This document shows, piece by piece, positions 2 through 53,652 of a DNA stretch of 64,000 bases. Numbering within the stretch: the stretch's first letter is position 1; the number at the start of each line of letters is the position of its first letter. The stretch lies in NCBI RefSeq assembly GCF_054482525.1, contig NZ_CM137006.1; one strand, 5' to 3'. The notes below the pieces were generated by a model. That model ran no database searches. It worked only from the letters and a program-made list of their open reading frames with translations, and was not told the origin of the DNA. The position numbers were made by a program, and so were the translations under genes.

Positions 2-883
2 ACCATTAAATGGGCGATCGCCGTTGGCGATCAGCGCGTTGAAACGGTGTATATCCCGGAAGACGACCGTGCCACGCTCTGCGTCTCTTCGCAGGTGGGG
101 TGTGCGCTGGAGTGTAAATTCTGTTCCACCGCCCAGCAGGGCTTTAACCGCAACCTGCGGGTATCGGAAATTATCGGCCAGGTGTGGCGTGCGGCGAAAA
201 TTGTCGGCGCAGCAAAAGTCACCGGTCAGCGTCCAATCACTAACGTAGTGATGATGGGTATGGGCGAGCCGCTGCTCAACCTGAACAACGTCGTTCCGGC
301 GATGGAAATCATGCTTGATGATTTCGGTTTTGGCCTGTCAAAACGTCGCGTCACGCTTTCCACTTCCGGTGTGGTTCCGGCGCTGGATAAACTGGGCGAT
401 ATGATCGACGTTGCGCTGGCTATCTCCCTGCACGCGCCGAACGACGAAATTCGTGACGAAATTGTGCCGATCAACAAAAAGTACAATATCGAAACGTTCC
501 TTGCGGCGGTGCGCCGTTATCTGGAGAAATCCAACGCCAATCAGGGCCGAGTCACTATTGAATACGTGATGCTTGACCACGTTAACGACGGCACTGAACA
601 CGCGCACCAACTGGCGGAACTGCTGAAAGATACGCCGTGTAAGATCAACCTGATCCCGTGGAATCCCTTCCCGGGCGCGCCGTATGGACGCAGCTCGAAC
701 AGCCGTATCGACCGTTTCTCAAAAGTGCTGATGAGCTACGGTTTCACCACTATTGTGCGTAAAACCCGTGGTGATGATATTGATGCTGCCTGTGGTCAGT
801 TGGCGGGCGATGTTATCGACCGTACGAAACGTACCCTGCGTAAACGGATGCAGGGTGAAGCCATCGACATTAAAGCGGTCTGA
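2..883 (+). CDS. rlmN: 23S rRNA/tRNA m2A methyltransferase RlmN, 5'-truncated at window edge
   Basis: Open frame from window start; CxxxCxxC radical-SAM motif (CALECKFC); recalled RlmN sequence; conserved neighbourhood. Confidence 0.9.
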
Positions 884-1167
884 TAGCCATTACGCCACGG
901 TTACTTTATGTACCGTGGCGTAATCTTTTATGAATGAAGTATTAAGTTGCAATTGTCTGGTCAATATTAACGGTGCGTTTTTGCTGACTTTAAGGCAGTA
1001 TGTAACGATGCAACAGTAAGTTAGCCTTAGTGAATGTGGGCTTTGTCACGAGCACACAGACGGTCTTATACTGTATGATAACGGTTAACTTAACGGATGT
1101 TTCGCGGTGTGGGTGAGCATGATGGTTCACCGGCATCTCAATTCTCATTTAAACGTACCTGCAGCGA

Positions 1168-2181
1168 ATGAATACTGAAGCCACGCACGACCAAAATGAA
1201 GCACTTACTACCGGCGCTCGCCTGCGTAATGCTCGCGAACAACTAGGACTTAGTCAGCAGGCCGTTGCCGAGCGACTTTGCCTGAAGGTTTCCACGGTAC
1301 GCGACATTGAAGAAGATAAGGCACCCGCCGATCTTGCTTCAACATTCCTGCGCGGATATATCCGCTCTTATGCGCGTCTGGTACATATTCCAGAAGAAGA
1401 ACTGCTGCCAGGGCTGGAAAAGCAGGCTCCACTACGGGCTGCAAAAGTTGCGCCGATGCAGAGTTTTTCCCTTGGTAAACGCCGCAAAAAACGTGACGGC
1501 TGGCTGATGACCTTCACCTGGCTGGTGTTGTTTGTGGTTATCGGCCTGAGCGGTGCCTGGTGGTGGCAAGACCACAAAGCTCAGCAGGAAGAGATCACCA
1601 CTATGGCCGATCAATCTTCGGCGGAATTGAGCAGTAATAGCGAGCAGGGGCAGAGTGTTCCGTTAAATACGTCGACAACTACAGACCCGGCTACAACGTC
1701 CACGCCGCCAGCGTCTGTGGATACTACCGCAACCAACACGCAAACACCTGCCGTAACTGCGCCAGCACCAGCTGTTGATCCGCAACAGAATGCGGTTGTT
1801 TCGCCTTCGCAGGCAAATGTTGATACCGCCGCGACCCCGGCACCAACGGCAACAACAACGCCAGATGGTGCTGCGCCGTTGCCAACCGATCAGGCTGGCG
1901 TGACCACGCCGGTGGCTGATCCGAATGCGCTGGTGATGAACTTTACTGCCGATTGCTGGCTGGAGGTCACTGATGCTACCGGTAAAAAATTGTTTAGCGG
2001 TATGCAGCGTAAAGACGGTAATTTGAACTTAACCGGCCAGGCACCGTACAAACTGAAAATTGGTGCGCCAGCCGCAGTACAGATCCAGTATCAAGGGAAA
2101 CCTGTCGATCTGAGTCGTTTTATCAGAACTAACCAGGTTGCGCGTCTGACCCTCAATGCCGAACAATCACCGGCGCAGTAA
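1168..2181 (+). CDS. rodZ: Cytoskeleton protein RodZ
   Basis: 337 aa ORF; N-terminal HTH, single TM, Pro/Thr-rich linker; position between rlmN and ispG. Confidence 0.9.
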
Positions 2182-2207
2182 CAGACGGGTAACGCGGGAG
2201 ATTTTTC

Positions 2208-3326
2208 ATGCATAACCAGGCTCCAATTCAACGTAGAAAATCAACACGTATTTACGTTGGGAATGTGCCGATTGGCGATGGTGCTCCCATCGCCGTACAG
2301 TCCATGACCAATACGCGCACGACAGACGTCGAAGCAACGGTCAATCAAATCAAGGCGTTGGAACGTGTTGGCGCTGATATCGTCCGTGTCTCCGTACCGA
2401 CGATGGACGCGGCAGAAGCGTTCAAACTCATCAAACAGCAGGTTAACGTGCCGCTGGTGGCTGACATCCATTTCGACTATCGCATTGCGCTGAAAGTAGC
2501 GGAATACGGCGTCGATTGTCTGCGTATTAACCCTGGCAATATCGGTAATGAAGAGCGTATTCGCATGGTGGTTGACTGTGCGCGCGATAAAAACATTCCG
2601 ATCCGTATTGGCGTTAACGCCGGATCGCTGGAAAAAGATCTGCAAGAAAAGTATGGCGAACCGACGCCGCAGGCATTGCTGGAATCCGCCATGCGCCATG
2701 TTGATCATCTTGATCGCCTGAACTTCGATCAGTTCAAAGTCAGCGTGAAAGCGTCAGACGTCTTCCTCGCTGTTGAGTCTTATCGTTTGCTGGCAAAACA
2801 GATCGATCAGCCGCTGCATCTGGGGATCACCGAAGCGGGTGGCGCGCGCAGCGGGGCGGTTAAATCCGCCATTGGTTTAGGTCTGCTGCTGTCTGAAGGC
2901 ATCGGCGACACGCTGCGCGTATCGCTGGCGGCCGATCCGGTTGAAGAGATCAAAGTCGGTTTCGATATTTTGAAATCGCTGCGTATCCGTTCGCGAGGGA
3001 TCAACTTCATCGCCTGCCCGACCTGTTCGCGTCAGGAATTTGATGTTATCGGTACGGTTAACGCGCTGGAGCAACGCCTGGAAGATATCATCACTCCGAT
3101 GGACGTTTCGATTATCGGCTGCGTGGTGAATGGCCCAGGTGAGGCGCTGGTTTCTACACTCGGCGTCACCGGCGGCAACAAGAAAAGCGGCCTCTATGAA
3201 GATGGCGTGCGCAAAGACCGTCTGGACAACAACGATATGATCGACCAGCTGGAAGCACGCATTCGTGCGAAAGCCAGTCAGCTGGACGAAGCGCGTCGAA
3301 TTGACGTTCAGCAGGTTGAAAAATAA
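2208..3326 (+). CDS. ispG: 4-hydroxy-3-methylbut-2-enyl diphosphate synthase IspG
   Basis: 372 aa ORF; recalled IspG/GcpE sequence incl. C-terminal CPTC...C cluster motif. Confidence 0.95.
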
Positions 3327-3436
3327 TAACGTGATGGGAAGCGCCTCGCTTCCCGTGTATGATTGAACCCGCATGGCTCCCGAAACATTGAGGGAAGCGT
3401 TGAGGGTTCATTTTTATATTCAGAAAGAGAATAAAC

Positions 3437-4711
3437 GTGGCAAAAAACATTCAAGCCATTCGCGGCATGAACGATTACCTGCCTGGCGAAACGGCCATCT
3501 GGCAGCGCATTGAAGGCACACTGAAAAACGTGCTCGGCAGCTACGGTTACAGTGAAATCCGCTTGCCGATTGTAGAGCAGACCCCGCTATTCAAACGTGC
3601 GATTGGTGAAGTCACCGACGTGGTTGAAAAAGAGATGTACACCTTTGAGGATCGCAATGGCGACAGCCTGACTCTGCGCCCTGAAGGGACGGCGGGCTGT
3701 GTACGCGCCGGCATCGAGCATGGTCTTCTGTACAATCAGGAACAGCGTCTGTGGTATATCGGGCCGATGTTCCGTCACGAGCGTCCTCAGAAAGGGCGTT
3801 ATCGTCAGTTCCATCAGTTGGGCTGCGAAGTTTTCGGTCTGCAAGGCCCGGATATCGACGCTGAACTGATTATGCTCACCGCCCGCTGGTGGCGCGCGCT
3901 GGGTATCTCCGAGCACGTAACTCTTGAGCTGAACTCTATCGGTTCGCTGGAAGCACGAGCCAATTACCGCGATGCGCTGGTGGCATTCCTTGAGCAGCAT
4001 AAAGAAAAGCTGGACGAAGACTGCAAACGCCGCATGTACACTAACCCGCTGCGCGTGCTGGATTCAAAAAATCCGGAAGTGCAGGCGCTTCTCAACGACG
4101 CTCCGGCATTAGGCGATTATCTGGACGAGGAATCTCGTGAGCATTTTGCCGGTCTGTGCAAACTGCTGGAGAGCGCGGGGATCGCTTACACCGTCAACCA
4201 GCGTCTGGTGCGTGGTCTGGATTACTATAACCGTACCGTTTTCGAGTGGGTGACTAACAGTCTCGGCTCCCAGGGCACCGTGTGTGCAGGCGGTCGTTAT
4301 GACGGTCTGGTGGAACAACTGGGCGGTCGTGCAACACCGGCTGTCGGTTTTGCGATGGGCCTCGAACGTCTTGTATTGTTAGTACAGGCCGTTAATCCGG
4401 AATTTAAAGCCGATCCTGTTGTCGATATATACCTGGTGGCTTCAGGTGCTGATACACAATCTGCGGCTATGGCATTAGCTGAGCGTCTGCGTGATGAATT
4501 ACCGGGCGTGAAATTGATGACCAACCACGGCGGCGGCAACTTTAAGAAACAGTTTGCCCGTGCTGATAAATGGGGTGCCCGCGTTGCTGTGGTGCTGGGT
4601 GAGTCTGAAGTGGCTAACGGCACAGCAGTAGTGAAGGATTTGCGCTCTGGTGAGCAAACGGCAGTTGCGCAGGATAGCGTAGCCGCGCATTTGCGCACGT
4701 TACTGGGTTAA
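3437..4711 (+). CDS. hisS: Histidyl-tRNA synthetase
   Basis: 424 aa ORF; class II aaRS motifs; recalled HisS. Confidence 0.95.
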
Positions 4712-13099: not shown

Positions 13100-13126
13100 A
13101 ACCCTCTGTTTTTACAGAGGGTTTTT
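13100..13126. repeat. Prophage left attachment site (attL); guaA terminator hairpin AACCCTCTGTTtttACAGAGGGTTTTT
   Basis: Near-identical copy at 53625-53652 (3 mismatches in loop); lies just after guaA stop and before the integrase. Confidence 0.7.
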
Positions 13127-13245: not shown

Positions 13246-14496
13246 GTGCTTACCGATACAAAATTAAAAAACCTCAAGCCGCAGGACAAACTGTACAAGG
13301 TCTCCGATCGTGACGGGCTGTATGTAGCTGTGCTTACGTCAGGCACGGTCTCGTTTCGCTATGACTACCGTATCAACGGTCGTCGCGAAACACTGGTAAT
13401 CGGGCAGTATGGGCGTGACGGTATCAGCCTGGCAGAAGCGCGAGAAGAACTGATTGCTGCAAAGAAGCTGCTTAAAGCAGGCCAGTCGCCGGCTGCGGCT
13501 AAACGTGACGGTATCAAAAAGATTCGTGGTGCCGAGACGTTTGCGGTACATACCGACAGTTATATGAAACACGTCATCCTGGCTGACAGTACCCGCGCAA
13601 TGAAGCAGGCGGTGATTGACCGTGACATACTTCCGGTTCTTGGTAACAAAATGATGGCTGAAATTACCACATCGATGGTTCGTGATTTGTGTGACCGGAT
13701 TGTCGAACGCGGTGGTCGGGCAACAGCAGTACAGGCCAGGGAGATCATCAGCAGCGTATACCGTCACGCCAATGACCGTGGTCATGGTTTGTTTAATCCT
13801 GCGGCTGACATTAAACCTTCGTCTATCGCCATATTTAAACCACGAGAGCGAACACTGACACCAGAAGAAATTGGCCTGTTCTTCCGCACGCTGGATGCCA
13901 TTGGTGCTATGGGCACTATGAAAATGGCTTTAAAGCTGGTGCTTATCACTATGGTTCGTAAAGGCGAATTCACCAACGCAACGTGGGATGAAATAGATTT
14001 TAAAAAATGGACATGGACAATTCCTTCAGACCGCATGAAGGGAAGCCGGGCGCACGTTATTTACCTGCCTAAACAGGCTCAGGATATATTGGTCGGGTTG
14101 CAGATGTGCGCTGGTGGAAGTGAATATCTGGTTCCTGGTCGTTACAATTTCCGGAAGCCATTATCTAATGCCGCGCTGAACTCTCTGATCGACAGAACGG
14201 TGAAAATAATAAATGAAGATGGTGAGCATATTCAGGGCTTCACCGTACACGATATGCGCCGTACAGCCAGTACGTTGTTGCATGAGGCTGGTTATCCTTC
14301 AGACTGGATTGAAAAGGCTCTGGCACATGAGCAGAAAGGTGTGCGCGCCGTATATAACAAAGCGGAATACGCCAGACAGCGCGCCTACATGTTGCAGCAG
14401 TGGGCCGATATGATTGATTCCTGGATTAACGGGGAGCATACGGATCTGATTCCGTTCTCCCCGTCGAAGTTTGAGAAGTGGATGGCGGGGGAATAA
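13246..14496 (+). CDS. int: Tyrosine integrase (P4-type, with N-terminal arm-binding domain)
   Basis: 416 aa ORF with GTG start; N-terminus typical of P4-family integrases; catalytic-domain R...HDMRRT...Y pattern. Confidence 0.85.
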   Translation: MLTDTKLKNLKPQDKLYKVSDRDGLYVAVLTSGTVSFRYDYRINGRRETLVIGQYGRDGISLAEAREELIAAKKLLKAGQSPAAAKRDGIKKIRGAETFAVHTDSYMKHVILADSTRAMKQAVIDRDILPVLGNKMMAEITTSMVRDLCDRIVERGGRATAVQAREIISSVYRHANDRGHGLFNPAADIKPSSIAIFKPRERTLTPEEIGLFFRTLDAIGAMGTMKMALKLVLITMVRKGEFTNATWDEIDFKKWTWTIPSDRMKGSRAHVIYLPKQAQDILVGLQMCAGGSEYLVPGRYNFRKPLSNAALNSLIDRTVKIINEDGEHIQGFTVHDMRRTASTLLHEAGYPSDWIEKALAHEQKGVRAVYNKAEYARQRAYMLQQWADMIDSWINGEHTDLIPFSPSKFEKWMAGE

Positions 14497-14690
14497 CGTT
14501 TAATAGTTCTGCTGATTTTCTTCCATCTCTGCTTCTGCTGCCAGTGATTCAATTTTGTTTTCGAATATTGCTGACAGTGTTGCAAATTCAGCATCAGTGA
14601 CAGCGGGAATTGGAACAAACCTGATCCCGCTGTGTGCAAGCATGTTTGCAGTTTCAAGGCATTTTCTTAAATCTGCTGGTGATGCCCTGT

Positions 14691-15353
14691 TCATGCAGCA
14701 CGCTCCCGCCCCTGGTTGTCTGTTGGTGACATCGGAGAATTGCTGAATGCATTTGTTAATCCGCCAATATCCAACGCGTATCCTGGGTGTAGTTGCACTG
14801 CCGGGCCTTCGCACTGGTTACCCCAAACATCGAAGCCATGAGACGTCTGGCGGGCGAACAGTTCAATGCGAGAAACATCGCCTAACAATTGCACAAGTTT
14901 TTCACGAACGACATCTGGTTTTCTTGAATGCTCAAGCCGCGGTGCGGTAAATGACTGAACGATACCTGCATTAATGCGCGGAGGTAGTTTTCCCTTTACT
15001 GCAAACAGGCAATCTTCACTATTGGCGCGAGTCATGTGTCCCATACCCATAACCAGTTTATCTGGTTGTCGACTACCACATTTTATCCACGTGAAGCCCT
15101 TCATGGTCATCAGACGGAATCCCCAGGCTTCAACAACTTTTAGTGCTTCGAGTGGTTGTGTTGGCACCCACCACATGGCCAACAGACAGTTTTCATCGGC
15201 CAAATCCCACACAGGAAGGCGGCAGATATCCAGCACACTCATAACAGGATATTTAAAACCGGCACCGCGATTACCATCTGCGGCTTTGTCCCGGTATACC
15301 CAGGGTGGATCTGCATAGATTAGTGTGTATTTCTTAGTCATAAACCACCCCAC
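14691..15353 (-). CDS. DNA N6-adenine methyltransferase, MT-A70-like (orphan)
   Basis: 220 aa ORF; LIYADPPW motif IV; no adjacent restriction endonuclease candidate. Confidence 0.7.
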   Translation of the reverse strand: MGWFMTKKYTLIYADPPWVYRDKAADGNRGAGFKYPVMSVLDICRLPVWDLADENCLLAMWWVPTQPLEALKVVEAWGFRLMTMKGFTWIKCGSRQPDKLVMGMGHMTRANSEDCLFAVKGKLPPRINAGIVQSFTAPRLEHSRKPDVVREKLVQLLGDVSRIELFARQTSHGFDVWGNQCEGPAVQLHPGYALDIGGLTNAFSNSPMSPTDNQGRERAA

Positions 15354-15633
15354 AACATCCTATGCCGCTATAGTCGCCACGGCGAAGGCCGTTACCTTTT
15401 GTGATACATTGGTCCCTGCGAACCGCGATCCTTGCACGTTCAACATCACCAGAAGCAACATCCATACACTGAAGCCAAAGGTGAGCGGCAATGCGGAATT
15501 GCCCTTTTTTCTCTCTTTCAATCGCGCGTTTTTCGATCTCTATCGCCGCAGGAGTAACGGCGACAATCTTTGAAGGGCTGCGCATTGAAACCTTGTTCAT
15601 GTGATATTTTTCAAGTCGGCTTAACTTTCTCAC
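15334..15633 (-). CDS. Hypothetical phage protein
   Basis: 99 aa ORF in early-left operon overlapping methylase start; start codon uncertain. Confidence 0.35.
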   Translation of the reverse strand: MRKLSRLEKYHMNKVSMRSPSKIVAVTPAAIEIEKRAIEREKKGQFRIAAHLWLQCMDVASGDVERARIAVRRDQCITKGNGLRRGDYSGIGCCGVVYD

Positions 15634-15742
15634 TTAATCCAACCCTCTCTGAAAATTAATGCCAGCAGATAAAGCCATGCTGAAACAGAGGCCAGGAATA
15701 AGTACCATCCTGACCATTTGCTCCAGTGCCTTAGCAGCACAC

Positions 15743-15991
15743 TCATGCAGCGTTGCTCACAGGACGATATACACGTTGCTGAACAGGAGGCTTTTTACCC
15801 TGGAACTCTGCCGGGCTTGCTGCCTGACGTTCATCAAGCCAACGCTCAACTTCATCACGGTTCCATGCGCAGCGTTTATCGGTGATATACCAGCGTTTAG
15901 GAAATTCCCCTGCGCGCTCCATACGGTCGATAGTGCTCCATGACAGTGGCACCACCGCCAGGAGTTCCTTCTTACCTAATGCACCTTTCAT
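15743..15991 (-). CDS. AlpA-family phage transcriptional regulator / excisionase-like
   Basis: 82 aa; HTH region resembling AlpA (STIDRMERAGEFP...WLDE). Confidence 0.6.
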   Translation of the reverse strand: MKGALGKKELLAVVPLSWSTIDRMERAGEFPKRWYITDKRCAWNRDEVERWLDERQAASPAEFQGKKPPVQQRVYRPVSNAA

Positions 15992-16040: not shown

Positions 16041-16922
16041 TTACATAGATGTTTCGTTTAATTCTTCCCGACGAACGCTGTAAACGTCGGTGGCTTTTGC
16101 CAGCAGTTCGTCATCATCTGAAAGTTTTTGTGCAATGTATTTGTAAGCCTTATCCAGTTCGGAGACAGTGCTGTAATTCATCGCTGCGCTGGTAAAGGCC
16201 ATCAGCATTTCTTCTGGCTCACGGCTATCCGCTTTACGCGTTTGCTCATCAGGCTTTTTCACTGATTTAGCGTTGATCAGACTGTTCATTCCCGCAGCCG
16301 TAGTCATTTGCGGAGTAATGTCTCGCTCAACGCGCGGTGCCGTTTCCTGTAATTCGTCAGGGGTGTAAACACCGAGAAGTACATCAGGAGCGTGCAGGCG
16401 AGCCCATCGTTTCGTGCAAAGATAGGCAAGTTGCTGGCGCGGATCCTGTTCCCACAATGGAGAGTTACGCACTCCTGCTTGCGCCATACTGATGGTAAGC
16501 TCACGTGGTTCTGCTTCTCCTTTAAGAACTGCTGACACAGTTACCGTCAGATTCGGTGATTTATCTGTTTTGCCGTTAACATTCGACCAGTCACCGCTCC
16601 AGCGATAATTCAGGCGTGTCGCCAGCAGGCTGGAAGAGGATACGACCGCGTTTACCAACTGTGCTTCGTAGCCTAACGTTCCGTTTACCACATGCGTTTT
16701 CTGCGCCACGGCGAAAGGGTTCATTCCCCACTGTGCCGCCTGCATGGTCACCGCCAGGCAATCGGCAGGTTTGCCTTCAAGATGTTTCGGTACAGTCGCT
16801 TTGCTTTGTGACATCAACTCCGCGAAACGCACCAGTTGATTCATGCCCTCGGGGCTGAAGATTGCCGCAGCAGTGCCTACAGTTGCGCCTGGTTGTGATG
16901 TGATTGCGATATCATTGCTCAT
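16041..16922 (-). CDS. RecT/Red-beta family single-strand annealing protein
   Basis: 293 aa; resemblance to lambda Bet core (QWGMNPF...RWARL); coupled to upstream exonuclease. Confidence 0.65.
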   Translation of the reverse strand: MSNDIAITSQPGATVGTAAAIFSPEGMNQLVRFAELMSQSKATVPKHLEGKPADCLAVTMQAAQWGMNPFAVAQKTHVVNGTLGYEAQLVNAVVSSSSLLATRLNYRWSGDWSNVNGKTDKSPNLTVTVSAVLKGEAEPRELTISMAQAGVRNSPLWEQDPRQQLAYLCTKRWARLHAPDVLLGVYTPDELQETAPRVERDITPQMTTAAGMNSLINAKSVKKPDEQTRKADSREPEEMLMAFTSAAMNYSTVSELDKAYKYIAQKLSDDDELLAKATDVYSVRREELNETSM

Positions 16923-17740
16923 ACGTACATATCCTGTTTACGTGCCCAGTCAGGGCGTTTAATAATTTCCACTCCGCCCCATTCATCGTTGATGCGGCAT
17001 TCGTGATAGGTATTCAGATCCCGGCGGAACAGAGCGTGCCCGGCATCGACATCCGGCGCATCCAGCTCGAACACGCGTACCGGATACCGACCACAATCAA
17101 TGCTTTCGCTCACGGCAAGAAAGAAAAAACCATGTGGCTGACCAGTAACCCTCATTGCGCCTTCGCGGTACATTGCGTCCTGCACGTGGTAGCGGAACTC
17201 CTCGATGTGGCGTGCAAAACGGTCCATATCTGTAACCTTTTTCACGTCGACGATCACGTTGTGCTCTTTCAGCCATTTGTCTGGACGAATGCGGCACAAC
17301 TCACCAGTCTCTTCATCGTTCCAGTACATTGATGCTTCGCAGTAACCAGGTGCTTCCAGCATCCAGCGTGCCGCCGGGTGAGCCATTGCGCTATCACGCA
17401 TCAGCTCCAGTTTCCGCCACTGCTCGGCATCAAGTACCGTAATCCCCATATCCGCCACATCACGAAGAAATGCCTCTTCGTCAGCTTTACCTTGTTTCGT
17501 CCGACGATCGAATTTCGGCGAAACAATGAAGCGTTTGTCGAACTCTCCAGGCTCCAGAAGCAGACAGTGCAATGCGGTTCCCATATCCAGTGCAGACTTT
17601 TTCTCTTCGTCTTCTGGTGCTGCCTGAACCCATTTAAGAAGCGCCGGATTCTTGGCAACCATGTCCAGTTGCGACTTACTCACGCCGTCCCCGGCGTGGT
17701 AGTCTTCGTTGCTGATGTCGAAATAAATTCCCGGCTTCAT
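16919..17740 (-). CDS. YqaJ-type PD-(D/E)XK exonuclease (recombination exonuclease)
   Basis: 273 aa; overlaps annealase gene by 4 nt; typical exo-annealase pair. Confidence 0.6.
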   Translation of the reverse strand: MKPGIYFDISNEDYHAGDGVSKSQLDMVAKNPALLKWVQAAPEDEEKKSALDMGTALHCLLLEPGEFDKRFIVSPKFDRRTKQGKADEEAFLRDVADMGITVLDAEQWRKLELMRDSAMAHPAARWMLEAPGYCEASMYWNDEETGELCRIRPDKWLKEHNVIVDVKKVTDMDRFARHIEEFRYHVQDAMYREGAMRVTGQPHGFFFLAVSESIDCGRYPVRVFELDAPDVDAGHALFRRDLNTYHECRINDEWGGVEIIKRPDWARKQDMYV

Positions 17741-18051: not shown

Positions 18052-18272
18052 ATCTCGTTATCGTTGGCCACATCGCGAGCTTCTTTGCTGACGAAAGCCC
18101 ACTTAATACCTTCCTGTAAGGTGCGGAACTTCCAGCTCATGAATCCGCATGCAGTAACGCAGTACCAACCGTTGATGATTTTCCACTGCATAACTTGTTA
18201 CCTCGGTTTGTTACCGTTGAGGTAATGATTATGCGTATTTGGTTTGGTGTCAATAGATATGAGTTAAAAAAA

Positions 18273-18287
18273 TTACCCACAAGGTAA
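18273..18287. promoter_or_regulatory. TTACC-N5-GGTAA motif at the early-left promoter position (OL-like)
   Basis: TTACCcacaaGGTAA between repressor 3' end and start of leftward operon. Confidence 0.5.
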
Positions 18288-18344: not shown

Positions 18345-18929
18345 TTATTGTTTGCTTTTTTCGTTCTGGTTGATGACAAATTCAATGTAACTTTCGATCT
18401 TTGCTTTCTCGGTTTCGGGTAACAATGCGTAGCGCGAGCGGTCATAGTTGATAGTCGCAGGGTCGTGCGGGTGAATCAGTAATTCATAGCCGTGACGCCC
18501 GAATGCGGATGCAACATTCTCCAGGGTGGAAATGGAAACGCTGACCTCATTGTTTAACAGGCGGCTGATTGTCACCTGGGCGACGCCGGATGCGCGGTGA
18601 AGTTTTCCCTGTGTTGAAAGGTCGCGGCTTTCGCTCATCCAGCGTTCCAGGTTGTGAGCCGCCAGCTGACCAATGTCGCTTGGGCCGACAGGCTGAAAAC
18701 CTTCCTGAGAAAGCGAGCGATCGATATCAAGCCAGTTACGGGGTTTATTGGCGGCAGCTTCAATTTTTCGCGCAACCTGGTCGCCGATAACCTTCTTACC
18801 AAGAGCCCAGCGGTTTACCAGATTTGCCTGAGTTCCAAGTTTTTCTGCCATCCGCGTCTGAACACCATTGAATTCACGGTCGATCAAGTCGTTGAGATTT
18901 TGCCTGCGGACGTCCTGGATACTTTTCAT
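18345..18929 (-). CDS. Prophage repressor, two HTH domains, no LexA-like peptidase domain
   Basis: 194 aa; two HTH-like segments; divergent from Cro-like gene; no GxSM/K autocleavage motif seen. Confidence 0.6.
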   Translation of the reverse strand: MKSIQDVRRQNLNDLIDREFNGVQTRMAEKLGTQANLVNRWALGKKVIGDQVARKIEAAANKPRNWLDIDRSLSQEGFQPVGPSDIGQLAAHNLERWMSESRDLSTQGKLHRASGVAQVTISRLLNNEVSVSISTLENVASAFGRHGYELLIHPHDPATINYDRSRYALLPETEKAKIESYIEFVINQNEKSKQ

Positions 18930-24205: not shown

Positions 24206-24415
24206 ATGGCTATTGCCGCAAGTTACACCATGCATCTCTATTGTGACTGCCGCCAGTGTACGGAAGGTGTATATCCAGTGCCAGACTTCGGTGAGTATAT
24301 CGGTACGTCATGGTCTGGTTGTGCAAAAGAGGCCCGTAAAGACGGGTGGCGAATAAGCGCCGACAAAACACGTGCTTTTGCGCCCGGGCATAAAGTTTTG
24401 AGGATTAACACATGA
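24206..24415 (+). CDS. Hypothetical small Cys-rich protein
   Basis: 69 aa from internal ATG of ORF 24164-24415. Confidence 0.3.
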   Translation: MAIAASYTMHLYCDCRQCTEGVYPVPDFGEYIGTSWSGCAKEARKDGWRISADKTRAFAPGHKVLRINT

Positions 24416-25215
24416 CCACTATTACCAAAGAACGTATTGAATTGTTCATTAAAAATCCGCTTGAAAACGGGCTTACTCGTGGCGAACAAATGGAACTGGC
24501 ACGAATTGCACTGGCATCACTGGAACGCGAACAGATTCGCCACGAGCATGCCAAATGGTCTGACTCCACATTTGGCTGCGTTGGCCCCATTGGTCCACTG
24601 AAACACCTCTCAAAAGAGGCACTGGAAGCCGCAGCCGAACCAGACGATCTTAGCGAGTGGGCTGATATGCAGTTTCTGTTGTGGGATGCACAGCGCCGTG
24701 CTGGCATCAGCGATGCTGAAATTAACGTTGCTATGGAAGATAAATTGAAGATCAACATGGAGCGCCAGTGGCCTGAGCCAAAAGATGGTGAGCCTCGCTT
24801 GCACATTAAAGAACCCGGCAACTCTCCGGTAATTCCGGATGGTTTATCCACGGTATGCGCTGAGGCTTATCAGGTTGTAGGAGTTATGGCAGATGCGCTT
24901 GGTGTATTCGGTGATGCAGCAGTACAGAACGTTCTGGATAACCTGTCACAGCAAAAACTTGTTCACAGAGATGTGCTGCCGTTCTCGCTTCCGGCAACTC
25001 CGGATGGTTGGATAAGCTGTAGTGATCTAATGCCGGAAGACACCAAAATGTTACTGGCATTTAGTCAAGGTGAAATCGTGGCAGCATATTGGAACTGGGT
25101 TGTAAATCCAATTGATTACAAAAAATATAGAGCTTTCACGTATTTATCAGGAAATATCTTGGATGACGTAACCCACTGGATGCCGCTACCAGAACCGCCG
25201 CAGGAGGTGAAGTGA
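24412..25215 (+). CDS. Phage protein with C-terminal DUF551-like domain
   Basis: 267 aa; C-terminal W-rich segment ending HWMPLPEPP. Confidence 0.5.
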   Translation: MTTITKERIELFIKNPLENGLTRGEQMELARIALASLEREQIRHEHAKWSDSTFGCVGPIGPLKHLSKEALEAAAEPDDLSEWADMQFLLWDAQRRAGISDAEINVAMEDKLKINMERQWPEPKDGEPRLHIKEPGNSPVIPDGLSTVCAEAYQVVGVMADALGVFGDAAVQNVLDNLSQQKLVHRDVLPFSLPATPDGWISCSDLMPEDTKMLLAFSQGEIVAAYWNWVVNPIDYKKYRAFTYLSGNILDDVTHWMPLPEPPQEVK

Positions 25216-28794: not shown

Positions 28795-28871
28795 TGGCGC
28801 GGCATGCAGGATTCGAACCTGCGACCAACCGCTTAGAAGGCGGTTGCTCTGTCCAACTGAGCTAATGCCAC
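28795..28871 (-). tRNA. tRNA-Arg (anticodon UCU), phage-encoded
   Basis: Hand-folded cloverleaf: 7-bp acceptor stem, D-arm GCTC/GAGC, anticodon loop CTTCTAA, T-arm GCAGG-TTCGAAT-CCTGC, 3' CCA encoded. Confidence 0.85.
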
Positions 28872-46055: not shown

Positions 46056-46601
46056 TTATTCCTTCCATTTATCAGAAAAAAGATCTTCTTCTAAAGGCAT
46101 TGGTTCTGTTTTTGTTTTCTCAAAGAATTGATAACTGATAGTGATTGCTGCCTCTTTAAACTCTTCTTGCTCAGTTATGTTGTGGGCATCTGCGTCAACA
46201 AAAAACATAACCAGCGCATCACGATTGTGATTTACCGAATAAACTAAAAAGCAATTACTTGTTGGTATGCATTTTACTTGCACAGACGCTATTTTTTTCC
46301 ATGCATCCCAAGATGATTTTTTACCAGTGTGTTTTTTATCACTATCTTCTGGAATATAGTCTTGGTTATCGACATGAGTATGCCTGACATTTAGTTTAAG
46401 CATTTCTGTCGGACGAGCAAATGCAGCATCTTTACCAAGAGATGGATGGTATCCCGTTTTCCAATACTGGGTAAAGGCATCAGATACTTTCTTCAGCTCA
46501 AGATCAGATGCACAAAGGGCCGAGAAATTTTGCGTATGCAATACTCGACCCTTATATCTGACAATTTGATTTTTATCATTCTGCGACGCAGACGAACTCA
46601 T
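46056..46601 (-). CDS. YafO-like toxin candidate with N-terminal extension
   Basis: 181 aa from ATG with AAGGA RBS; C-terminal part resembles recalled YafO core. Confidence 0.4.
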   Translation of the reverse strand: MSSSASQNDKNQIVRYKGRVLHTQNFSALCASDLELKKVSDAFTQYWKTGYHPSLGKDAAFARPTEMLKLNVRHTHVDNQDYIPEDSDKKHTGKKSSWDAWKKIASVQVKCIPTSNCFLVYSVNHNRDALVMFFVDADAHNITEQEEFKEAAITISYQFFEKTKTEPMPLEEDLFSDKWKE

Positions 46602-46755
46602 AATTTTCCTTATTGTTACGAGAATCAAAGAAAGCGCGGGATACGCGACTTGCGTGATCTTTTGTCATAGTAACTTTTACGCACTCTACGCTTCCATTGA
46701 AAGAACGTCTTGCGGCAGCTTGCGCTCTACGCATCTGCAATTTTTCGTTTCGCAT
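46576..46755 (-). CDS. Small basic protein, candidate antitoxin/regulator
   Basis: 59 aa hand-translated ORF (below ORF-track cutoff) with GAGGT RBS; 3' end overlaps toxin start by 26 nt. Confidence 0.3.
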   Translation of the reverse strand: MRNEKLQMRRAQAAARRSFNGSVECVKVTMTKDHASRVSRAFFDSRNNKENYEFVCVAE

Positions 46756-46815
46756 GACATTACCTCATATCTCATAAGTTCATTACACGGATTAATAAAA
46801 ATGAAACCAATCCGT

Positions 46816-46830
46816 TTACCCTTGAGGTAA
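46816..46830. promoter_or_regulatory. TTACC-N5-GGTAA motif upstream of small ORF/toxin pair
   Basis: TTACCcttgaGGTAA. Confidence 0.45.
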
Positions 46831-46902
46831 TAGTACGCTATTCACCCACAGTCTGCAATCTGTACAGAATTATTTAAAGGCACATCCCTGTGCCGCCGCC
46901 CG

Positions 46903-47598
46903 TCAGAAGAACCCTGCCTTGTCGTTGATGTACTCCGCGTGCGTCTGGATATCACGCAGGCATTTGCTCACACCGACGATGTAGCAGAACATGGTGGTCA
47001 GCTCCGCCGCCGCGCCCGATACGTCGTGCCCGTCGTCCTGTAACTGGTTCAGCAGATTCATCAGCAGTGAGTTCTCCGTCAGGCCGAGAACACCAGACGG
47101 CGAATGAATCAGGCTGCGGTAGCCGGGCTTCAGTGGGGCACTGTAGGTTTTGTTCTCTATCTTCATCGCCTGCATCACTGCTGATGCTGTGGCGTTGGCT
47201 ACCTGGTCGGCAACCATCTTTATGCGCTCTTCCTGCGGGAGCGAGTTTTTAATGTAACTTCCGGTGCGGCGGATCTGAGGAAGAACCTCACCTGTAACCC
47301 ATTTACGAAAGCGGTATGGGATAGTGCCTGGTGTCACTGCGTCGCGGCAGCGGAGGATCAGTGTGTAGAGGCCTGACTCGGAGATGATGATCGATTCTTG
47401 CTCACCGCCAGGGGTGTCGGTTGAAGCGACGCCCTTCTCATCATCATCAAGTTTTCGAACAGCATCTCGATGGTTTGCTATGCCTATAGCCCGACAAACA
47501 TCTGAAGCGATAAACCATGGCTCACCATTAATGACGATTACTCGTATATCGGCTTGGGATTCGAAAGAAAAAATGGACGTGCTTTTTGTAGCTGTCAT
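46903..47598 (-). CDS. BRO-N domain antirepressor-like protein
   Basis: 231 aa; N-terminal Bro-N-like pattern (INGEPWFIASDVCRAIG); C-terminal domain paralogous to ORF 47914-48171. Confidence 0.6.
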   Translation of the reverse strand: MTATKSTSIFSFESQADIRVIVINGEPWFIASDVCRAIGIANHRDAVRKLDDDEKGVASTDTPGGEQESIIISESGLYTLILRCRDAVTPGTIPYRFRKWVTGEVLPQIRRTGSYIKNSLPQEERIKMVADQVANATASAVMQAMKIENKTYSAPLKPGYRSLIHSPSGVLGLTENSLLMNLLNQLQDDGHDVSGAAAELTTMFCYIVGVSKCLRDIQTHAEYINDKAGFF

Positions 47599-53624: not shown

Positions 53625-53652
53625 AACCCTCTGTTACTACAGAGGGTTTTTT
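53625..53652. repeat. Prophage right attachment site (attR); AACCCTCTGTTactACAGAGGGTTTTTT
   Basis: Direct repeat of 13100-13126; host genes resume immediately after. Confidence 0.7.

Follow-up and report, generated by a model that had tools for sequence, protein, structure and literature searches.

Described Relatives of the Methyltransferase

The gene studied here is already known: it is annotated in phage phiV10, in RefSeq and in the PHROGs, and relatives of its product have been the subject of experiments. In phiV10 (NC_007804), gene p33 ("DNA methyltransferase") lies between p32 (DUF1382) and p34 (PerC-type activator), and this group adjoins a convergent P4-type integrase gene.

The MT-A70 enzyme M.EcoPA8orf6770P from the Stx2a phage PA8, a lambdoid, has an N-terminal DPPW motif, and its gene lies close to int in the early-left accessory region, between that for PNB-2 and an overlapping DUF1382/Orf63 gene. 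It methylates 16S rRNA only in complex with PNB-2; this complex prefers 16S rRNA and 30S subunits and raises spontaneous prophage induction, and the phenotype of the PA8 homolog is lost when DPPW is mutated to APPA (Gong et al., NAR 2024, PMC10810198). The C-terminal tail characteristic of the STEC-type enzymes was proposed by the same authors to be needed for holoenzyme formation with PNB-2, and variants without this tail also lack PNB-2. The same paper calls M.EcoGV from an O104:H4 Stx2 phage "highly similar" to the PA8 enzyme, reports that its overproduction by itself leads to GATC methylation in vivo, and mentions GATC as the REBASE annotation of similar proteins; Forde et al. (PMC6602927) likewise give GATC as the site of M.EcoGV. 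GATC activity in this lineage is nevertheless contested, because the PA8 enzyme, when purified and assayed by itself, was almost inactive in vitro on dam- DNA (PMC10810198).

Prokaryotic MT-A70 enzymes (beta2 class) with Dam-like GATC specificity are also described from Serratia phage BZS1 (p32), Escherichia phage HK639 (gp35) and Tn1549 (M.EfaBMDam) (PMC7556043). They are orphans borne on mobile elements, and those from phages are encoded in the integrase-side early region. BZS1 p32, which is 75% identical to HK639 gp35 and is located near the integrase gene, renders DNA resistant to MboI and sensitive to DpnI in a dam- host (PMC7556043). The same catalytic fold and DPPW motif occur in the eukaryotic METTL3-METTL14 and ciliate MTA1/AMT1 enzymes, although these work only as heteromers, carry additional domains and modify mRNA or ApT in DNA. 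With regard to the small genes of this region, Orf63 of phage lambda is a DUF1382 protein of about 63 aa; its gene, part of the early-left operon, lies between those for recombination and those for integration. The protein is reported to be an intertwined homodimer with a pro-lytic phenotype, and the exo-xis genes of lambda, as described by Khan et al., include no methylase (PMC10869804).

Organization of the Locus and Its Prophage

We examined a window of 64,000 nt in which a 14-bp direct repeat, TACAGAGGGTTTTT, bounds a prophage of about 40.5 kb situated just after guaA; the copy at 13113–13126 (plus strand) is the candidate attL core and the second copy, at 53638–53651, the candidate attR. 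The prophage is of the phiV10/epsilon15 type (Uetakevirus), and the segment of interest is the promoter-distal accessory end of its early-left operon, which corresponds to the "exo-xis" region of lambdoid phages. All genes of the operon are on the minus strand: a PD-(D/E)XK exonuclease (16919–17740; Pfam DUF3799, E = 4e-22) and RecT (16041–16922; Pfam RecT, E = 1.4e-31), which are separate ORFs in the window but a single annotated fusion in phiV10, are followed by five genes chained by overlaps of 4 or 8 nt. These encode an 82-aa AlpA-family HTH protein, similar to excisionases and regulators (15743–15991; Pfam PF05930 and PHROG 66, "excisionase and transcriptional regulator"), a 38-aa hydrophobic peptide that, from its translation and the phiV10 annotation, resembles phiV10 p35 (15630–15746), a PerC-family small regulator of 99 aa read from a GTG (15334–15633; Pfam PF06069 and PHROG 868), the methyltransferase of 216 aa read from an ATG (14691–15341; assigned from the ORF, Pfam and PHROG), and a 64-aa homolog of lambda Orf63 (14500–14694; Pfam PF07131 and PDB 8DSB). 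The 38-aa ORF overlaps the stop codon of the AlpA-like gene through an ATGA and the start of the PerC-family gene through a GTGA; the methyltransferase ATG lies over the stop codon of the PerC-family ORF in an 8-nt overlap, ATGACTAA, and an ATGA joins the methyltransferase stop to the start of the 64-aa ORF. A preliminary description, made from the same DNA, had noticed the overlapping small ORFs on both sides of the methyltransferase, including that with its start, and they are indeed present. It had also placed the methyltransferase gene distally in the leftward early operon; this is right for its position at the integrase-proximal end, but the gene is the penultimate one, and the Orf63 homolog, the last, lies between it and the convergent P4-type tyrosine integrase gene (13246–14496, plus strand; Pfam Arm-DNA-bind_3 and Phage_integrase), whose stop codon is 3 nt from that of the Orf63 homolog.

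The order and overlaps of p32 to p34 and the adjoining integrase gene in phiV10 are the same as here. The 1.8-kb segment is 98% identical in DNA to that of phiV10, with only point differences, and the methyltransferase is 97% identical to p33, of which it is the ortholog; the phiV10 oac segment had no match in the window comparison. The segment is widespread in Escherichia coli, with matches in 564 of 5426 complete genomes (about one in ten), of which 533 cover 80% or more of it, and is 95–99% identical across hundreds of genomes. In one relative in RefSeq, identity is 99.8% across the 1.8-kb locus and 95–99% across most of the prophage. Among viral contigs, the methyltransferase was found with 97–99% identity in 80, all of them phiV10-like.

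The early-left operon looks repressor-controlled. A sigma-70-like promoter candidate (TTGACA-17-AATCAT; 18225–18253, minus strand) is placed between the first ORF of the operon and an intrinsic terminator (18324–18305, minus strand; terminator prediction) that follows the gene for a putative prophage repressor with two HTH motifs (18345–18929, minus strand; annotated as such in the RefSeq relative and phiV10). Two operator-like palindromes, TTACC-N5-GGTAA (18211–18225 and 18273–18287; motif search), flank this candidate, and the same motif recurs in the repressor/cro-like intergenic region (18985 and 19033); there are 17 matches in the window versus 1.3 expected, and both the promoter and the operators are assigned solely by their fit to a consensus. 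We found no terminator-like site on the minus strand from the promoter candidate down to position 14500. Because the promoter candidate is bracketed by operator-like palindromes shared with the immunity region, the methyltransferase gene is probably silent in the lysogen.

An Intact MT-A70 Methyltransferase

The product of the gene is almost certainly an intact orphan adenine methyltransferase of the MT-A70 (beta-class) type, in agreement with its first assignment in the preliminary description. Its match to Pfam MT-A70 (PF05063) spans the complete model (positions 1–172 of 172; E = 5.8e-22, 78.9 bits for a cut-off of 23.9), and it also matches PHROG 359, "DNA methyltransferase" (E = 1.6e-119), and a PADLOC Type II MTase model (E = 3.3e-76); the NCBIfam search returned no model for this protein or for the DUF1382 product. 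A GTG at 15353 is an alternative start. The DPPW motif occupies residues 11–14, and in an alignment of 10 diverse phage homologs D11, P12 and W14 were invariant and P13 was found in 9 of the 10. D11, P12 and W14 are among 51 invariant residues, and the S-x-K-P (139–142) and RIELF-x-R (158–164) motifs were invariant as well. DPPW is close to the N-terminus and the SAM-binding region comes after it, which corresponds to a permuted order of beta strands, and the protein is predicted to be a SAM-dependent N6-adenine methyltransferase.

Comparisons with known structures point in the same direction. The best matches in PDB by sequence were Tetrahymena MTA1 (4e-13) and METTL3 (2e-6), with about 23% identity to the eukaryotic enzymes, and the DPPW motif aligned onto that of MTA1. 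An AF2 model, of moderate quality since the alignment had only 10 sequences (mean pLDDT 71, 80–93 in the core, and below 50 in the C-terminal ~30 residues), retrieved with Foldseek METTL3 and MTA1 chains as best matches (E about 1e-13, TM 0.60–0.65, about 0.63). The 216-aa protein has no separate target-recognition domain and is a bare catalytic domain. Its reading frame is intact and dN/dS is 0.08–0.09, with saturated dS; the gene is maintained by selection.

These data also bear on whether the gene might be a decaying or functionless passenger, as could be suspected from the near inactivity in vitro of the purified PA8 homolog alone and from phage PA2, in which the homolog is disrupted by IS629 with phage viability kept. 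The intact frame, the invariant residues, which include D11, P12 and W14 of DPPW, the low dN/dS and the conservation of the enzyme and of the segment among viral contigs and genomes all speak against it, and we consider it very unlikely.

The Flanking Genes

Judging from their profile matches and substitution patterns, both small ORFs flanking the methyltransferase are real genes and not chance ORFs, because of the matches to DUF1382, lambda Orf63 and PerC and of dN/dS values of 0.26 for the DUF1382 gene and 0.11 for the PerC gene, the latter over 99 codons in comparison with phage Tyrion. The 64-aa ORF, which had been listed just as possible in the preliminary description, matches Pfam DUF1382 (PF07131) over positions 1–60 of 60 (E = 1.8e-30) and, through residues 2–62, the NMR structure of lambda Orf63 (PDB 8DSB; E = 8.5e-13). 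The name of this PDB entry, "Xis (Excision72)", would make the ORF an excisionase; this identity was discarded, as the entry is lambda Orf63 (PMC10869804). The homolog shares with lambda Orf63 its family, size and operon, but its gene here closes the operon and is coupled in translation to that of the methyltransferase.

The upstream 99-aa ORF is a putative PerC-family regulator: it scores 30.1 bits with Pfam PerC (PF06069; cut-off 22.6), covering only model positions 5–50 of 90, and matches PHROG 868, "transcriptional activator", over residues 1–99 of 99 (E = 5.7e-62). Its start has been called differently, giving 83 aa in RefSeq and 88 aa in phiV10; the GTG start that yields 99 aa is supported because of the GTGA overlap with the upstream 38-aa ORF, a GAGGG Shine-Dalgarno-like sequence and the 99-codon alignment with Tyrion.

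Absence of a Linked Restriction Enzyme and of PNB-2

The methyltransferase had been described as lacking a partner restriction enzyme, and this holds for all the sequences that we inspected: none is annotated in the phiV10 segment 21981–35781 of the record or in the prophage of the RefSeq relative, and none was recognized with Pfam among the window-specific ORFs, a few small ones of which have no Pfam assignment. In place of the linked endonuclease of a Type II system, the neighbors of the gene are those for PerC, Orf63 and the integrase. It is extremely improbable that the enzyme represents the modification component of a restriction-modification system, even though it matches PADLOC Type II methyltransferase models and a nuclease could be sought among the several small prophage ORFs without Pfam assignment. 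Both flanking genes were identified as non-nucleases, with the integrase gene directly next, the gene occupies a variable accessory slot whose neighbors differ in related phages, and a repressed methylase accompanied by an active nuclease would give a non-viable lysogen.

The enzyme is 83% identical to that of PA8 over residues 1–187, and both genes are followed by an overlapping DUF1382 gene in equivalent regions of their phages, although the phage here is a podovirus of the epsilon15 type. Similarity is limited to this catalytic part: divergence is complete after about residue 190, so the last ~30 residues are unrelated to those of the PA8 enzyme and the STEC-type tail (its last ~27 aa) is missing. 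The upstream gene is PerC-like here and PNB-2 in PA8; a tblastn search of the whole window found no homolog of PNB-2 (best E = 4.5) nor, with HK639 gp37 as query, of this protein (best E = 1.8), and PerC and PNB-2 showed no sequence similarity. PerC was also discarded as an equivalent of PNB-2 because, besides this, it is not next to the methyltransferase in Tyrion, Klebsiella phi3.2 and SPC32N. The BZS1/HK639 enzymes agree with ours in family and size, but are far more distant than that of PA8: HK639 gp35 is 45% identical, and enzymes of its type have an insertion of ~24 residues that is absent here and are preceded by a PNB-2-like gene (gp37, 54% identical to PNB-2, in HK639).

Target and Possible Role

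We favor, with a probability of about 0.55 for the statement as a whole, that this is an orphan methylase of the phiV10 lineage, silent in the lysogen and produced upon induction or infection, with Dam-like methylation of GATC in DNA; its timing of expression, its GATC specificity and its biological role are here deduced. The shared operator-like palindromes at the operon promoter would keep the gene silent in the lysogen. Once expressed, after induction or infection, the enzyme would most likely methylate GATC in DNA as a mimic of Dam, so that rapidly replicating phage DNA would stay fully methylated; this might protect it from restriction of the DpnII/MboI type, or have other Dam-linked effects on replication, repair or induction. 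GATC activity is suggested because the core is 83% identical to that of the PA8 enzyme, the "highly similar" M.EcoGV is reported to act on GATC, BZS1 p32 and HK639 gp35 are more distant kin, and PNB-2, by which the PA8 enzyme is redirected to rRNA, is absent. Composition supports neither side: GATC is neither avoided nor enriched in a manner that could hint at specificity, with an observed/expected ratio of 0.73 in the prophage versus 0.78 in the flanking chromosome. A mimic of Dam has no obvious selective value in a dam+ host, though the gene is clearly under selection. An enzyme specific for GATC would also add no new motif to a dam+ lysogen and, because of this and of the probable silence of the gene in the lysogen, a comparison of the methylomes of lysogen and cured strain would be uninformative. 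The preliminary description proposed protection from restriction or an epigenetic role; protection from restriction is indeed possible, but the proposal is generic and misses the data on the enzymes of Stx2a phages and of the BZS1 p32 type.

Two other targets have to be weighed against GATC. The enzyme might act chiefly as a 16S rRNA m6A methyltransferase and adjust the spontaneous induction of the prophage, with another specificity partner such as the PerC-like protein, the Orf63-like dimer or a host factor. We see this as a minority possibility. It draws on the resemblance of the core to that of the PA8 enzyme, which with PNB-2 prefers 16S rRNA and 30S subunits, on the statement in Gong et al., after Iyer et al., that MT-A70 enzymes are typically heteromeric (PMC10810198), and on the coupling of both neighbors to the methyltransferase gene by overlapping codons; additionally, small winged-HTH proteins recur directly upstream of related methylases (PNB-2, HK639 gp37, the "regulator" of ST101-KPC2phi6.1, from Klebsiella, and Tyrion gp30). 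However, PNB-2 is missing from the window and PerC does not resemble it, the tail suspected by Gong et al. of binding PNB-2 is replaced, and the neighbors are not constant companions of the enzyme: other genes lie between PerC and the methyltransferase in Tyrion, Klebsiella phi3.2 and SPC32N, and DUF1382 occurs in lambda with no methylase described among the exo-xis genes. As an obligate partner, DUF1382 was rejected, since the pairing is found in phiV10-like and Stx phages but not in four other related phages, where the small ORFs downstream of the methylase are not DUF1382. The enzyme might instead be a DNA adenine methyltransferase of relaxed or non-GATC specificity, serving the phage genome as a broad anti-restriction device, which we hold to be unlikely. 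Orphan beta-class enzymes of that kind exist in phages, namely M.EcoGI/GII (PMC6602927) and the enzyme of Serratia prophage OS31 (PMC7556043), the protein is minimal and devoid of a separate target-recognition domain, and specificity can shift at such divergence; yet the sequence-nearest characterized members are reported as GATC enzymes, membership of M.EcoGI/GII and the OS31 enzyme in the MT-A70 clade is not demonstrated, and nothing at the locus favors another motif.

A more speculative variant, which we would give little credence, is that in the PNB-2-less epsilon15/phiV10 lineage the coupled PerC-like protein or Orf63-like dimer acts as an alternative targeting subunit, directing the enzyme to RNA or to particular sites in DNA and thereby setting how often the prophage is induced. 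As a separate observation, the co-expression constructs of Gong et al. reach the end of the DUF1627 gene and hence also carried the DUF1382 gene, so a role of Orf63 could have gone unnoticed.

Significance for the Family

The interest of the locus is mainly comparative, as it holds a natural variant of the Stx-phage enzyme without PNB-2 and with a different C-terminal tail. If its coupled neighbors did target the enzyme, the small "exo-xis" proteins would serve a phage MT-A70 enzyme as interchangeable specificity modules, which would parallel METTL3-METTL14 in a prokaryotic system. This PNB-2-less variant could help to settle whether these enzymes are Dam-like DNA methylases or rRNA methylases, and where in the protein the partner is recruited.

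Gene organization beside the integrase

Three leftward ORFs are genuine coding genes: a PerC-family gene (15334–15633, minus strand; 99 aa from a GTG), a methyltransferase gene (14691–15341, minus strand; 216 aa) and a DUF1382 gene (14500–14694, minus strand; 64 aa). Pfam searches matched the methylase to MT-A70 (E = 5.8e-22), the 64-aa ORF to DUF1382 (E = 1.8e-30) and the 99-aa ORF to PerC (30.1 bits, cut-off 22.6), and pairwise dN/dS against diverged homologs, with dS saturated, was 0.08–0.09 for the methylase, 0.11 for PerC and 0.26 for DUF1382. The 64-aa ORF, with an ATG on the methylase stop, had been called only possible in the preliminary description and is a real gene. Upstream lie a hydrophobic 38-aa ORF resembling phiV10 p35 (15630–15746, minus strand) and an AlpA-like gene (15743–15991, minus strand). 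The 38-aa ORF shares an ATGA with the AlpA-like stop and a GTGA with the PerC GTG start; in ATGACTAA the start codon of the methylase overlaps the PerC stop, as described before, and the DUF1382 start and the methylase stop share an ATGA. The overlaps run from the AlpA-like gene to DUF1382, and the five genes are therefore coupled.

The PerC-family start is annotated variously (83 aa in RefSeq, 88 aa in phiV10, 99 aa in the PHROG profile and in Tyrion); we favour the 99-aa GTG start, given its GTGA overlap with the conserved 38-aa membrane-peptide ORF, which carries no RefSeq annotation in a closely related genome. A weak resemblance of this protein to the ANR (AraC negative regulator) family falls short of the cut-off (E = 3.4e-5).

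Prophage context and distribution

The window opens with E. coli guaB and guaA, directly followed by a prophage of ~40.5 kb bounded by a 14-bp direct repeat (TACAGAGGGTTTTT; copies at 13113 and 53638), beyond which host genes return from yfgI onward. This candidate att core (14 bp; 13100–13126 region and 53638–53651) overlaps a terminator-like hairpin starting 47 nt past the guaA stop, and integration would therefore regenerate the hairpin. The 1.8 kb around the three genes shows 98% identity with Escherichia phage phiV10 (Uetakevirus, epsilon15-like) and has counterparts, at 95–99.8% identity, in 564 of 5,426 complete E. coli genomes. RefSeq names the genes at matching loci as DUF1382 family protein, MT-A70 family methyltransferase, PerC family transcriptional regulator, HTH regulator and RecT; the locus is therefore already annotated, and the feature is known and ordinary.

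Elsewhere in the prophage, the recombination module (16041–17740) comprises two overlapping ORFs, for a PD-(D/E)XK exonuclease (273 aa) and RecT (293 aa), whereas a single RecE-RecT fusion of 1,761 nt is annotated in phiV10; similarity to both phiV10 and strain 1517k, which also carries a prophage, breaks at 16448–16645. A 267-aa ORF with a dATP/dGTP pyrophosphohydrolase domain (PF04447, E = 2.4e-41) plus DUF551 (24412–25215) sits where the prophage departs from the closest RefSeq genome. Amid the late region, two leftward ORFs (46056–47598, minus strand) encode a 190-aa product with a YafO-toxin-like match below threshold and a 231-aa Bro-N domain protein; the segment is missing from the 1517k prophage and has TTACC-N5-GGTAA copies on its flanks. 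A tRNA-Arg gene (anticodon TCT; 28795–28871, minus strand) lies between the terminase and portal regions.

Probable regulation of the early-left operon

The leftward operon, which includes the recombination genes and ends with DUF1382, is preceded by a putative repressor gene (18345–18929, minus strand) ending in a strong intrinsic terminator (18324–18305) and, just ahead of the first operon ORF, by a sigma-70-like site (TTGACA-17-AATCAT; 18253–18225); from there to 14500 the minus strand has no terminator-like site. On either side of this candidate promoter is a perfect TTACC-N5-GGTAA palindrome (18211, 18273), and the motif also occurs twice within the repressor/cro-like intergenic region; this arrangement is consistent with repressor control of the operon, so that the methylase would probably be silent in the lysogen. 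Allowing one mismatch, there are 17 copies in the window against 1.3 expected, 16 of them inside the prophage (13189, 18211, 18273, 18985, 19033, 19370, 21272, 21334, 25983, 26001, 29194, 46816, 47868, 48249, 48481 and 51808). Nine of these 16 avoid every ORF in a crude gene set, and another three overlap nothing but short, spurious-looking ORFs; among the sites are some ahead of int, some around the early-left promoter and some in the immunity region. The palindrome has the look of an operator used across the phage by a single regulator.

The methylase had been taken for the distal gene of the operon, but DUF1382 comes last, its stop 3 nt from that of the convergent integrase gene (13246–14496, plus strand). 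A terminator-like site is absent from the junction (14494–14502); early-left transcription should therefore enter int antisense, possibly as a control on integrase expression.

Identity of the methylase

The DPPW motif occupies residues 11–14. An alignment of ten phage homologs (identity down to 47%) has 51 invariant columns, including D11, P12 and W14, with P13 kept in nine of the ten, as well as S139-x-K141-P142, R158-I-E-L-F-x-R164 and W173-G-N175. Among PDB sequences it is closest to Tetrahymena MTA1 (E = 4e-13) and human METTL3 (E = 2e-6), and an AlphaFold2 model (mean pLDDT 71; core blocks 80–93; last ~40 residues <50) superposes on the catalytic domains of both with a TM of ~0.63. Sequence and model identify a minimal beta-class MT-A70 N6-adenine methyltransferase with a tail predicted to be disordered.

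Synteny and the exo-xis counterpart

The epsilon15-like phages Tyrion, Klebsiella phi3.2 and SPC32N share the order AlpA, 38-aa ORF, PerC, variable insert (DUF1317, wHTH or DndB), methylase, small ORFs and convergent int. The insert parts PerC from the methylase, and PerC is therefore not a fixed neighbour; in Tyrion a 75-aa winged-HTH gene stands directly upstream of the methylase. None of the small ORFs that follow the methylase in these three phages belongs to DUF1382. The slot in which the methylase lies is variable and accessory.

The 64-aa product matches PDB 8DSB (E = 8.5e-13). The molecule in this entry, deposited under the name "Xis (Excision72)", is actually lambda Orf63 solved by NMR, a dimeric DUF1382 protein that is encoded in the exo-xis region and has pro-lytic phenotypes (PMC10869804). 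In phiV10 terms, the segment thus corresponds to the exo-xis accessory region of lambdoid phages. Phages PA8 and 06-3462 also have a DUF1382 gene after the methylase, with an overlap of 41 nt. For the PA8 co-expression plasmids, the published reverse primer lies at the 3′ end of DUF1627 (1634–1655 in PA8, our L003); the PA8 constructs therefore also included the DUF1382/Orf63 and DUF1627 genes, and a ~7-kDa Orf63-like protein could have been present in the reported preparations of methylase and its partner protein, PNB-2.

Function of the methylase

A tblastn search found methylase homologs in 516 of 50,697 phage records. Stx2a-converting phages, including PA8 (KP682374), carry an enzyme with 83–84% identity across residues 1–187, studied in PA8 as M.EcoPA8orf6770P (Gong, Chakraborty and Koudelka; PMC10810198). 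In their work, spontaneous induction and virulence rose with the intact gene but not when DPPW was mutated to APPA. The enzyme purified alone had almost no activity on DNA or RNA, whereas with PNB-2, the product of the upstream gene, it formed a 1:1 complex preferring 16S rRNA and 30S subunits. An RNA or rRNA methylase using another partner is one of the less likely readings here. The whole window contains no homolog of PNB-2 (143 aa; best tblastn E = 4.5); the upstream gene is PerC-like and unrelated to it, unlike in HK639 and Klebsiella phage ST101-KPC2phi6.1, with PNB-2-like "regulator" genes upstream of their own methylases. The C-terminal ~30 residues are likewise unrelated to the STEC tail, which is suspected of mediating PNB-2 binding; variants without this tail also lack PNB-2 (PMC10810198).

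A Dam-like GATC DNA methylase made in lytic growth is our main reading, with a probability of about 0.5. According to Gong et al. (PMC10810198), the "highly similar" M.EcoGV of the O104 strain methylates GATC in vivo if overproduced without PNB-2, and similar proteins are entered in REBASE as GATC enzymes; Forde et al. (PMC6602927) give the same specificity for M.EcoGV. A more distant relative, the MT-A70 enzyme p32 of Serratia phage BZS1, encoded near the integrase gene, is GATC-specific by MboI/DpnI digestion in a dam- host and 75% identical to HK639 gp35 (PMC7556043), which is 45% identical to our methylase. GATC composition gives no clue (143 prophage sites, observed/expected 0.73 versus 0.78 in the flanking chromosome). 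A DNA methylase of other or relaxed specificity is unlikely. A passenger gene devoid of function, for which the near-inactivity of the lone PA8 enzyme might speak, is very improbable with the low dN/dS and invariant residues, and half of a hidden restriction-modification pair is hardly credible: neither the phiV10 segment inspected nor a closely related RefSeq prophage has an annotated restriction enzyme, and Pfam found none among ORFs particular to this version of the prophage. The methylase therefore stays an orphan, as first proposed, and its identity as an intact orphan MT-A70 adenine methyltransferase is nearly certain.

The preliminary observation stands with minor corrections, while its interpretation is supported only in part. 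Lysogen and cured methylomes in a dam+ background would probably be alike, enzyme active or not, because a lysogen likely keeps the gene repressed and host Dam already methylates GATC; the failure to gain a motif, proposed as a refutation, would therefore not refute activity. The remaining value of the locus is comparative: as a natural variant without PNB-2, it bears on the dispute over whether this methylase lineage is specific for DNA or for rRNA.
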